Part shown: positions 4,006-7,521 of the stretch, piece after piece | Numbering within the stretch: the first letter of the stretch is position 1 | Layout of the letters: each line of letters begins with the position of its first letter | DNA from: Methanobacteriota archaeon | GTDB lineage: Archaea; JAADCQ01; Methanopyri; Methanopyrales; Methanopyraceae | Assembly: GCA_027064305.1 (NCBI GenBank) | Contig: JAMOPY010000017.1 | Location: 1-37,089 of the forward strand | Direction of reading: 5' to 3' | DNA length: 37,089 bases | Notes under the pieces: generated by a model | The model's input: only the letters and a program-made list of their open reading frames with translations | Databases searched by the model: none | What the model was told of the DNA's origin: nothing | Translations under genes and position numbers: made by a program

Positions 4006-4068
4006 GGAGGTCGGGTAAACCCCGTCCTCCTCATCGAGGGCTCGGCCGACCCCTAACTCCTCATCTCC
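4006..4068 (-). ncRNA. Box C/D guide sRNA (sRNA-A)
   Basis: GGAG-ATGAGGA(C)-GTTAGGGGTCGG-CCGA(D')-GCCCTCG-ATGAGGA(C')-GGACGGGGTTTAC-CCGA(D)-CCTCC. Guides are 12 and 13 nt, with a GGAG/CTCC terminal stem; overlaps the HD gene stop. Confidence 0.85.
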
Positions 4069-4652
4069 GTCTCGTCCCGGAACCAGTCCAGGAACGCGAG
4101 CAGGCGCCGGGCGCGGGCCCGGGCCAGCCTGCGGGCCGTCTCCGTGTGCATGAGCCGGGGCAACCTCAGCAGCTTCTCGTGGAAGTGTTGGATGCCGTCC
4201 TCGAGGCTGGTGCCGCGCTCGCCCACGACGCAGAAGCACCGGGCGATGCCCACCGCGCCCATCGCGTCCAGGTTGTCCGCATCCTGCAGGATCCTGGCCT
4301 CCAGGGTCCTCGGCTCCGGGCCCGTGGAGTACCGGTGCGCCTCGATGGCGTGCACGACGTCGTCCAGCTTGTCCCTGGGGAAGCCCAGGGAGGGCAGCAC
4401 CCGGGCGGCGATCCGGGCGCTGACGCGCGCGTGGTCGCGGCCCGTGCGCTCCTCCTCGGGCCGGCCCACGTCGTGCAGCCAGGCGGCGGCGAGAAGGACC
4501 TCCAGGTCCGCCCCCTCGCGCCGCCCGATGAACTCGCAGAGGGAGACGACGCGGCGGACGTGATCGTACCCGTGGGACGGCGGCACGTCGGGGCCCCGGA
4601 GCCGGCGGCGAACGAACGCGGCCAGGTCCCTCTCCCAGGGGAACGAGCTCAC
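4053..4652 (-). CDS. HD-domain phosphohydrolase
   Basis: H(GYDH)...WLHDVGR...IEAH...QDADNLD HD-superfamily pattern. Confidence 0.9.
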   Translation of the reverse strand: MSSFPWERDLAAFVRRRLRGPDVPPSHGYDHVRRVVSLCEFIGRREGADLEVLLAAAWLHDVGRPEEERTGRDHARVSARIAARVLPSLGFPRDKLDDVVHAIEAHRYSTGPEPRTLEARILQDADNLDAMGAVGIARCFCVVGERGTSLEDGIQHFHEKLLRLPRLMHTETARRLARARARRLLAFLDWFRDETEMRS

Positions 4653-5876: not shown

Positions 5877-6148
5877 CGGCTCAGCTCCCTCGCGATCCTC
5901 TCCCGCGAGTCCCGTGATAGTCGGGCCCCCAGGTCCTTCTTCAGCAGCCGCTCCACGTCCTCCGGGGAGTCCACCTCCTCCTCGAAGATGACGTAGTAAC
6001 TGGAGGTTCCCTCCACGTTGAACAGGAAGAGGTGGGGGTCCCGGTCCAGGTCGACGTCGGCCAGGGCGGCCTTGAGCCGGGCGAAGTCCTTCAGGTCGTC
6101 GCTCAGCTCGGAGTAGCGCGAGCGTCCGAGGTACTTGGCCACGAACAC
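5873..6148 (-). CDS. DUF749-like conserved methanogen protein
   Basis: MFVA...KA...NVEGTSSY motif; adjacent to the DUF2096-like gene. Confidence 0.75.
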   Translation of the reverse strand: MFVAKYLGRSRYSELSDDLKDFARLKAALADVDLDRDPHLFLFNVEGTSSYYVIFEEEVDSPEDVERLLKKDLGARLSRDSRERIARELSR

Positions 6149-6197
6149 GGGACGATGGCCCCGTCGGGCCCGGACGCCGAGCGCTTAAGTCGGGCTC

Positions 6198-6261
6198 GGT
6201 TCGGCGACGGCCGTTGTCATCATCCTGGGAGCGGTCAGGATCCAGGCCCTCTCCACATCCG
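6198..6261 (-). ncRNA. Box C/D guide sRNA (sRNA-B), degenerate terminal C box
   Basis: ATGTGGA(C?)-GAGGGCCTGGATC-CTGA(D')-CCGCTCCCAGG-ATGATGA(C')-CAACGGCCGTCG-CCGA(D). The D' guide is complementary to archaeal 16S GGUCCAGGCCCU. Confidence 0.75.
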
Positions 6262-6274
6262 GGGGGAGCGCGGC

Positions 6275-6904
6275 GTGGCCTGGCCGCTGTCGCTGCTGGC
6301 GGCGGCGGTGCTGGGGACGGCCTACGGACCCATCTCGGTGCTGCTGGCGCTGTTCGGGGAGGTCGCGGTCGGCTCGGCGGCCGGAGGGCTGCCGAAGCCC
6401 GTCTCGGTCGCGGTCGTGGCGCCGGTGATCGAGGAGTTGTCCAAGGGGATGGGCTTCCTGGTCCTGCCGGGGCTCGTCGCGAGGGTACTGGAGGCGCTCC
6501 TGCGACCCGCGATCCGGAGGGGCGAGGACTCGTTCCTGGGCGGCGCGGCCCGGTTCGTGGTGGAGGCGGTGCGGGAGAGCGGTCGGGGCGTGTCGGGACC
6601 CCTCGTGCTGGGGGCGACGACGGCGCTCGTGTTCGGTACGATCGAGAACTTCTTCTACGCGGTGTGGAGCCTGAAGTTGGGGCCGCTGGCCCCGATCGTG
6701 GTCGGGGTGACCCGGACCTTCGTGTCGCTCCCGGTGCACGTGCTGGCGACGTCCTCCTTCGCCTTCCTGTACGGGCTGGTGTGGAGGGTGGTGGGAAGCA
6801 GGTGGGTGGGCGCGCTGTCGGGGTACGTTTCGGCCGTGCTGATCCACGCGGCGTTCAACTTCTCGATCCTGTACCTGAGGTACAAGGCGGTGCACGCGAG
6901 GTGA
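6275..6904 (+). CDS. PrsW-family intramembrane glutamic protease
   Basis: Hydrophobic; APVIEELSKG (EExxK), FGTIEN (FxxxE), VH and HAAFN (HxxxN) motifs; start trimmed to GTG 6275. Confidence 0.85.
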   Translation: MAWPLSLLAAAVLGTAYGPISVLLALFGEVAVGSAAGGLPKPVSVAVVAPVIEELSKGMGFLVLPGLVARVLEALLRPAIRRGEDSFLGGAARFVVEAVRESGRGVSGPLVLGATTALVFGTIENFFYAVWSLKLGPLAPIVVGVTRTFVSLPVHVLATSSFAFLYGLVWRVVGSRWVGALSGYVSAVLIHAAFNFSILYLRYKAVHAR

Positions 6905-6964
6905 CGGTCGGCACTTAAAGGACTCGTCATCGCGGGCCTCGGTCCGCCCATCACTCCTCATCCT
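6905..6964 (-). ncRNA. Box C/D guide sRNA (sRNA-C) predicted to methylate 16S C1402 and the U at position 912 (E. coli numbering)
   Basis: ATGAGGA(C)-GTGATGGGCGGA-CCGA(D')-GGCCCGCG-ATGACGA(C')-GTCCTTTAAGTG-CCGA(D). Guides pair with 16S CCGCCCGUCAC and ACUUAAAGGA. Confidence 0.92.
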
Positions 6965-6984
6965 CGCCGCCGGGGAGGCCGGGC

Positions 6985-7521
6985 TTGCGCGTGTTCATAG
7001 GGGTTACGGGAGCGAGCGGTCAGGTCTACGCGAGGCGGTTGGCCGAGGTGCTGTTGGAGGAGGGGGTGGAGGTGGAGGCGTGCGTGACGCGGGCGGCGGA
7101 GCGGGTGATGAGGCGGGAGGGGGAGCGCCTTCCGGAGGGGGTGCGGCGCTACGATCCGGAGGACCTCTCCGCCCCGCCCGCGAGCGGGACCTACCGGGTG
7201 GACGGGTACGTGGTGTGCCCCTGCTCGCTGACCACGCTGGCGAGCGTCTCGGCGGGGATCGGGTCGGATCTGGTGAAGCGGGCGGCGATCGTGGCGCTGA
7301 AAGAGGGGCGCCGGCTGGTGCTGGTGGTGCGGGAGACCCCGTGGCCGGTCTCCGCGCTTCGGGCGGCGCTGGAGTTGGCGCGTGAGGGCGCGACGATCCT
7401 GCCCGCGTGCCCGGCGTTCTACCATCGACCCGAGGACGTGATGGATCTGGTGGACTACGTGGTGCAGAAGGTGCTCGACGCGTTGGGACTGGAGGTGGAC
7501 CTCGTCCGGTACGCGGACTGA
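6985..7521 (+). CDS. ubiX: Flavin prenyltransferase UbiX
   Basis: GVTGASG, APPASG, PCSLTTLA, LKEGRRLVLVVRETP, PAFY. Confidence 0.95.
   Translation: MRVFIGVTGASGQVYARRLAEVLLEEGVEVEACVTRAAERVMRREGERLPEGVRRYDPEDLSAPPASGTYRVDGYVVCPCSLTTLASVSAGIGSDLVKRAAIVALKEGRRLVLVVRETPWPVSALRAALELAREGATILPACPAFYHRPEDVMDLVDYVVQKVLDALGLEVDLVRYAD

Follow-up and report, generated by a model that had tools for sequence, protein, structure and literature searches.

A box C/D small RNA gene of a Methanopyri archaeon that very probably guides 2'-O-methylation of a decoding-centre cytidine and of a helix 27 nucleotide in 16S ribosomal RNA

The window analysed in this work is the whole of contig 17 (JAMOPY010000017.1, 37,089 nucleotides (nt)) of a Methanopyri archaeon, and the element in question is a small RNA (sRNA) gene of the box C/D type located in the spacer between a PrsW-family protease gene and ubiX. 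The genome to which the window belongs, and which was searched as a whole, comprises 1.21 Mb in 50 contigs, with 69.8% G+C and an estimated completeness of 89%. The sRNA very probably directs two 2'-O-methylations in 16S ribosomal RNA (rRNA), one of them at a cytidine of the decoding centre. We place at roughly 0.8 the probability that it is a bona fide archaeal box C/D sRNA with both guides functional on the two predicted 16S sites. Its assignment to the C/D class is based on the anatomy of the gene, its complementarity to the organism's own 16S rRNA, the presence of the genes for the ribonucleoprotein (RNP) components, and the selection on the paired nucleotides.

The gene is a unit of 54 nt on the minus strand (6961..6908, within 6905-6964), in which box C, a guide, box D', an 8-nt spacer, box C', a second guide and box D follow each other (Table 1). 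The preliminary description had given this layout with two 12-nt guides and had placed it, antisense to both neighbours, in the 80-base-pair (bp) gap between the PrsW gene and ubiX; the layout was reproduced from the sequence, and the Pfam matches and coordinates of the two genes agree with the placement. The sRNA unit occupies most of this gap, and the minus-strand open reading frames over the site have no Pfam match. Both guides, the one from C to D' and the one from C' to D, are exactly 12 nt long, as expected of an archaeal C/D sRNA. AUGAGGA contains the box C part of the kink-turn core (UGA...GA) and CCGA the box D part (GA), and the internal D' and C' boxes, CCGA and AUGACGA, are separated by the short loop of a K-loop. 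The proteins of the RNP are all encoded in the genome: fibrillarin (345.7 bits), Nop5 (252.4 bits) and L7Ae (102.4 bits).

An archaeal 16S gene is present at C40:11209-12725 (1464.9 bits). The D' guide forms 11 bp with this sequence, one of them G.U, and its position 5 stands opposite C1385, the fourth nucleotide of CCGCCCGUCAC. The D guide forms 10 Watson-Crick bp, with position 5 opposite U891, the second U of ACUUAAAGGA. When the guides were shuffled, a match as good as the real one was reached in 21 of 5000 trials for the D' guide and in 7 of 5000 for the D guide. By E. coli numbering, C1385 is taken to be C1402, at the P site on top of helix 44, and U891 is taken to be position 912, in the 3' strand of helix 27; both sites presumably lie near the decoding region of the ribosome. 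These were the targets that had been named before, the first with a single G-U, and the alignment to the genome's own 16S gene that had been proposed as a check bore out both guides. The table of equivalent modifications in Coureux et al. 2020 (PMC7005279, Table 4) agrees with C1385 as the C1402 site.

The sRNA gene was compared between this genome and five congeneric genomes in a six-way alignment. A homologue occurs in all five congeners, with identities of 95, 94, 86, 82 and 76% over the matched part, and in all five it is flanked by ubiX and the PrsW gene, both of them encoded on the other strand; one of the five is a single 1.7-Mb contig. Over the same comparison, the identity of the neighbouring proteins goes from 92% down to 36% for PrsW and from 99% down to 66% for UbiX. 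The paired positions of the guides are invariant in the six genomes, that is, positions 2-12 of the D' guide (11 of 11) and positions 2-11 of the D guide (10 of 10). Outside the duplexes, position 1 of the D' guide varies between A and G and position 12 of the D guide reads G, G, G, A, U and C, while position 1 of the D guide is unpaired yet invariant. The D'-C' spacer measures 7-14 nt in the congeners, with 2 of 14 alignment columns invariant, and only 4 of 20 columns are invariant in the 20 nt upstream of the gene. Six of the seven columns of box C do not vary, position 5 alone changing between G, C and U, and the core nucleotides of the kink-turn are the same in the six species. Changes of the boxes are coordinated: in the congener that is most distant, the terminal boxes are AUGAUGA and UUGA and the internal ones CGGA and GUGAAGA. 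Both 16S target stretches are identical in the three congeners whose 16S genes are assembled. The invariance of the paired positions beside a variable remainder is as expected of selection that maintains base-pairing to just these two sites in 16S. This pattern, which points to purifying selection on precisely the predicted pairing nucleotides, appears to be the strongest evidence for function.

Several observations weigh against a functional sRNA with these two targets. The textbook consensus RUGAUGA/CUGA, which provides a U.U pair after the G.A pairs, is departed from by the G at position 5 of box C and the C at position 2 of box D; the corresponding internal C'/D' pair is C.C; the terminal stem has at most 2 bp; no oligo-T run follows box D; the RNA by itself shows no unusual degree of structure (z score -1.42, with 19 of 200 shuffles folding as well); no Rfam family reaches its gathering score in the window; and about 4.9% of shuffled guides reach 10 bp on 16S in this GC-rich genome. 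Positions 1-11 of the D' guide also pair (11 bp, two of them G.U) with one conserved stretch of 23S rRNA in three of the four congener 23S genes (G001, G002 and G005), and the organism's own 23S gene is missing from the assembly. As to the box departures, a strong preference of archaeal C/D RNAs for U:U at this pair has been described by Ashraf et al. 2017 (PMC5689011).

The box variants were placed in the context of the genome by a relaxed regular expression (C, 10-13 nt, D', 1-12 nt, C', 10-13 nt, D), which gave 49 matches, and none when the genome was read in reverse without complementing; with a strict AUGAUGA...CUGA expression the counts were 11 and none. Three pairs among the 49 matches overlap as a result of tandem sRNA genes. 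At the terminal boxes, the combination of position 5 of C with position 2 of D is G/C in 22 matches, C/C in 13, U/U in 11 and another in three, two of which are tandem overlaps as judged by eye. The two positions covary (Fisher p 4.8e-9 for U with U in the 49 matches). The equivalent internal positions of C' and D' are G.C in 14 matches, A.G in 12, C.C in eight, U.U in five, C.U in four, C.G in three and others in three, and here A in C' goes together with CGGA in D' (12 matches, p 3.8e-7). Because these positions covary across the genome, the departure is a habit of the lineage and not a defect. AUGAGGA/CCGA is the commonest terminal form, and its combination with an internal C/C is ordinary for this genome. 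Structurally, AUGAGGA/CCGA would put a G-C pair in place of the usual U.U after the two sheared G.A pairs. In this very GC-rich lineage, then, the U.U of the C/D kink-turn is swapped for G-C or C.C in about three quarters of the guide RNAs, and the replacement may be an adaptation of a hyperthermophile lineage with 70% G+C. The preliminary description was silent on the CCGA of both D boxes and on G5 of box C.

Regarding pairing over the whole set, 42 of the 98 guides from the 49 matches form at least 9 bp with 16S; shuffled guides do so in 18.8 cases on average, and 26 guides do so when 16S is reversed. In the DNA upstream of the 49 matches, A+T is highest at -40..-31, where its fraction is 0.39-0.43 (about 0.27-0.33 elsewhere), and in several of these loci TATA-like hexamers clearer than the TATGAA found here stand at -36..-42. 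TATGAA itself doubles as coding sequence and is not conserved in the congener that is most distant, which makes it a weak candidate for a promoter element. A scan for promoters and terminators of bacterial type, which is not applicable to archaea, gave no site. Very short terminal stems are also described for the sRNAs of Methanopyrus kandleri, many of which are circular (Su et al. 2013, PMC3695527).

Table 1. Coordinates of the sRNA gene, its parts and the flanking genes in the window
Feature	Position	Strand	Remark
Box C AUGAGGA	6955..6961	-	Sequence read and regular expression match; G instead of U at position 5
D' guide GUGAUGGGCGGA	6943..6954	-	Positions 2-12 pair with own 16S 1382-1392; nucleotide opposite fifth guide position (+5), C1385
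Box D' CCGA	6939..6942	-	Sequence read and regular expression match
D'-C' spacer GGCCCGCG	6931..6938	-	8 nt; loop of the internal K-loop
Box C' AUGACGA	6924..6930	-	Sequence read, regular expression match and congener alignment
D guide GUCCUUUAAGUG	6912..6923	-	Positions 2-11 pair with own 16S 888-897; +5, U891
Box D CCGA	6908..6911	-	C at position 2, a possible Watson-Crick partner of G5 in box C
PrsW-family intramembrane protease gene	6032..6904	+	Pfam PF13367 (PrsW-protease), E 5.6e-13; strand opposite to the sRNA
ubiX-type flavoprotein gene	6985..7521	+	Pfam PF02441, E 2.8e-40; strand opposite to the sRNA
Possible TATA-like element TATGAA	6994..6999	-	38 nt upstream of box C; within the first ubiX codons on the other strand

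The modification predicted for C1385 has known counterparts in the three domains. In bacteria, the stand-alone enzymes RsmI and RsmH together make m4Cm1402, and an archaeal guide for the site, sR12, was reportedly predicted by Gaspin and coworkers in 2000. In the 16S rRNA of Pyrococcus abyssi, Cm1376 was observed, and it is equivalent to m4Cm1402 of E. coli, m4Cm1385 of T. thermophilus, Cm1639 of yeast and Cm1703 of human (Coureux et al. 2020, PMC7005279, Tables 3-4). The same Table 4 shows ribose methylation of this universally conserved nucleotide in bacteria as well, and gives the archaeal and eukaryotic nucleotide as Cm without the N4 methyl of the bacterial m4Cm. RsmI, which adds this ribose methyl in bacteria, is a protein-only enzyme and, unlike the sRNA, not RNA-guided. 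According to Hoeppner & Poole 2012 (PMC3511168), the prediction of sR12 by Gaspin et al. concerned the site equivalent to that of yeast snR70, and the sR12 guide is said to resemble SNORD43. The present sRNA is like sR12 (Pyrococcus, Sulfolobus), snR70 and SNORD43 (U43) in being a C/D guide on the stretch at the top of helix 44 with its +5 on the C1402 equivalent. It may thus be regarded, by analogy, as the Methanopyri counterpart of these archaeal and eukaryotic guides, with the guide on the D' side. The likeness to sR12 proposed here is one of function, as given by the target site.

Comparison with Rfam bears on homology within this group. SNORD43 (RF00221) and its clan CL00059 were absent from the seven matches obtained at E<=10 for positions 6880-6990, which lowers the claim of homology but not that of shared function; on a related Thermoproteota locus the SNORD43 model gave only 13.3 bits. 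The best matches in the window were sR-tMet, followed by sR15, sR41 and sR1. At the gathering threshold, 18 other archaeal loci with a guide in the C1402 register returned only two tRNAs, and in E-value mode all matches to small nucleolar RNA (snoRNA) families were below threshold.

Methanopyrus kandleri offers a closer comparison, as it has 126-127 box C/D sRNAs (Su, Tripp & Randau 2013, PMC3695527) with the same architecture and very short terminal stems, and a box C of the AUGAGGA type can be recognized in one of the primers printed in that work. A further likeness lies in the tRNA genes. In the present genome 19 of 26 have C at position 8 (T in five and G in two), the signature of C8-to-U8 editing; in M. 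kandleri, C8 occurs in 30 of 34 tRNA genes, is described as peculiar to that organism and is edited to U8 (Su et al. 2013, PMC3695527). In the main texts searched, no statement of a Methanopyrus sRNA targeting the C1402 equivalent was found, and supplements (PMC3695527 Table S1; PMC4644070 Additional files 3-4) may list an orthologue. In the text of Dennis et al. 2015 (PMC4644070), helices 3, 18 and 27 are the hotspots of 16S, predictions for helix 44 are sparse and this cytidine is not named.

Guides in the C1402 register were then sought in a collection of species-representative genomes with the pattern box, N, UGA, Y, GGGCGG, N, CNGA. The scan gave 61 loci, 41 archaeal and 20 bacterial by record title. 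A second box set with a guide beside the match was recognized by the parser in 30 of the 41 archaeal loci and in none of the 20 bacterial ones. Four archaeal loci (three of Methanopyri type and L032) have the C1402 guide on the D' side; the remaining 37 show an apparent terminal D box after it, and in this the present sRNA differs from them. In 20 of the 41 archaeal loci, a partner guide directly after the C or C' box is complementary to 16S positions 877-903, all partner guides having been compared with the 16S of the present genome and not with that of each organism, which is a weakness of the comparison. In two of the 20 bacterial loci some stretch of the flanks scores similarly as antisense to this region, and neither stretch follows a C-type box. 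By title, the 20 coupled loci belong to Thermoproteota (8), Nitrososphaerota (4), Methanopyri-type archaea (3), Thermoplasmata (2), Undinarchaeota (1), Micrarchaeota (1) and an unclassified archaeon (1). The groups differ in the +5 site of their partner guide (894, 881, about 893 and 891 in the numbering of the present 16S), while the fixed C1402 register across loci is set by the search pattern. A slightly looser pattern was present in 48 of 401 sampled archaeal genomes, which include the genome of the window and its five congeners, against two matches for the pattern read backwards; this corresponds to 30 of 268 genera and to 30 of 339 high-quality genomes. Under the exact pattern, the C1402-register guide is phylogenetically widespread and far from universal, as judged from these sequence matches. 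As a separate observation, 33 archaeal loci out of 41 have U opposite G1405, which gives a G.U pair, and eight have C, against U in seven and C in 13 of the 20 bacterial chance matches; the G.U may weaken a very G+C-rich duplex.

Among other explanations, the one closest to the proposal made here accepts a real C/D sRNP but regards methylation as secondary, or as confined to one guide, and takes base-pairing itself as the selected function. As an RNA chaperone, the sRNA would transiently hold the helix 27 3' strand, nucleotides of the central pseudoknot included, together with the top of helix 44 while the 30S subunit is assembled. The drift of the +5 site within 877-903 among the partner guides of the 20 archaeal loci would fit it, as would the C.C pair after the G.A pairs of the internal K-loop, and Dennis et al. 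2015 (PMC4644070) discuss selection for a coupled interaction of two guides. We consider it unlikely, given that both guides keep the 12-nt spacing and pair from position 2, as expected for catalysis, that Cm is physically present at the site in P. abyssi (PMC7005279), and that the sequence contains nothing separating pairing from methylation. A true or additional target of the D' guide in 23S rRNA, instead of or besides 16S C1402, is suggested by the 11-bp match in three congeners noted above and by a second site in G005 and G004 (10-11 bp, two G.U). These 23S duplexes are richer in wobble pairs than the 16S duplex, and one of the alternative sites is not conserved among the congeners; position 12 of the guide, which is paired only in the 16S duplex, is invariant, position 1, paired only in the 23S duplex, varies, and the same guide register recurs across archaeal phyla. 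Such a target is thus very unlikely. The D guide forms at most 9 bp with congener 23S, on the sense strand and within the gene itself. We also observed that in congener 23S (L093-L095, locus positions ~4257-4262) both guides partly match one stretch, D' with 11 bp including two G.U and D with 8-9 bp including one or two G.U; this joint complementarity is probably a coincidence of similar sequences.

Homology to sR-tMet/sR41, which directs 2'-O-methylation to C34 of elongator tRNA-Met, was also considered, since sR-tMet (RF02163) is the best Rfam match of the sequence (26.4 bits, E 0.0027-0.0072 on short stretches), sR41 (RF01126) gives 12.9 bits, the D guide agrees with the sR-tMet/sR41 consensus at nine of 12 positions, and C' AUGACGA and D CCGA resemble the sR-tMet consensus. 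Both scores are far below gathering (26.4 against 50 bits and 12.9 against 54 bits), and the three guide positions that differ are those that make the 10-bp 16S match and are invariant in the six species. Nor does either guide form more than 8 bp with any ARAGORN call below 100 nt, the three tRNA-Met genes included; calls were made on the whole genome, and the long, implausible ones of intron mode were disregarded. This homology is extremely unlikely. In the same genome, an intron-containing elongator tRNA-Met gene (C30:13898-14015, plus strand) has at its anticodon-intron junction a 10-nt complement of the sR-tMet/sR41 consensus guide. A search of the assembly with four 9-mers for a separate guide of sR-tMet type returned tRNA genes and two unconvincing sites (C1:38933 and C32:29368). 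Finally, short motifs could have come together by chance in this GC-rich spacer, or the locus could be a decayed copy that has lost its function; the short, non-canonical boxes would fit either. With no pattern match in the reversed genome, synteny in six species, selection confined to the boxes and the paired guide positions, and two independent 16S matches, this explanation has hardly any probability left and is close to refuted.

For the sRNA as a methylation guide, a sequence of events can be proposed from the established mechanism of archaeal C/D RNPs. The sRNA would be transcribed from the minus strand of the PrsW-ubiX spacer; L7Ae would bind the terminal C/D kink-turn and the internal C'/D' K-loop; and a Nop5 dimer would bridge both motifs and position two copies of fibrillarin. 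Each 12-nt guide would then form a duplex of 10-11 bp with the precursor of 16S rRNA, and the nucleotide opposite the fifth guide position upstream of D' or D would receive a 2'-O-methyl from S-adenosylmethionine. The predicted products are Cm at C1385 and Um at U891 of the organism's own 16S rRNA.

Many archaeal lineages couple the C1402 guide to a guide for the same stretch of helix 27, and a broader proposal may be built on this. The coupling of C1402 with the 3' strand of helix 27 would be an ancient archaeal double-guide design, permuted in Methanopyri and selected as much for its tethering in 30S assembly as for the methyl groups. The 20 of 41 loci in at least five differently named phylum-level groups, and the drift of the helix-27 +5 site, speak in its favour; we hold it to be speculative and rather unlikely. 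The target 877-903 is presumed to include the three nucleotides that form the central pseudoknot. One RNP would then keep the future central-pseudoknot strand either away from the top of helix 44 or close to it until a late stage of 30S assembly. In eukaryotes, the U3 snoRNA acts on the central pseudoknot, and, if the proposal were true, the double-guide RNP would be a simple archaeal counterpart of that role.

Other genes of the same type were noted. A second box C/D sRNA lies in the window at 4011-4064 on the minus strand and reads AUGAGGA, GUUAGGGGUCGG, CCGA, a 7-nt spacer, AUGAGGA, GGACGGGGUUUAC and CCGA. Its D guide forms 11 bp with the organism's own 16S and places the +5 at 1272; for the D' guide, 16S offers no match of at least 9 bp; and a run of six T starts 10 nt past its box D. 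Elsewhere in the genome, sRNA genes adjoin the genes of their own machinery and target: two C/D sRNA genes (C40:5465-5513 and C40:5614-5666, minus strand) lie just downstream of the fibrillarin gene (C40:5685-6362, minus strand), one (C40:12833-12886, plus strand) starts 108 nt past the 3' end of the 16S gene, and one (C9:29830-29880, plus strand) adjoins the L7Ae gene (C9:29389-29667, minus strand). Tandem or back-to-back clusters occur at C12:15721-15827 (minus strand), C42:17001-17087 (minus strand), C15:44622-44742 (minus strand) and C36:48500-48610. The overlapping matches of the regular expression share box sets in register, which suggests polycistronic precursors. At the start of the window's contig, a tRNA-Pro gene occupies positions 1-93 of the minus strand, for which two ARAGORN runs differ on the anticodon (cgg against ggg).

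The sRNA described here is a fresh example of a familiar type of RNA, at a site and by a mode of methylation that have already been described. Since the kind of RNA, the site and the sRNA-rich lineage are all known, the interest of the finding is modest and current understanding is not overturned. The comparison of six species points neatly to selection on exactly those nucleotides predicted to pair with 16S. The ribose methyl at the C1402 equivalent belongs to the very small number of rRNA modifications common to all three domains; bacteria use a protein enzyme for it, archaea and eukaryotes use guide RNAs, and the locus adds a well-supported example from Methanopyri.

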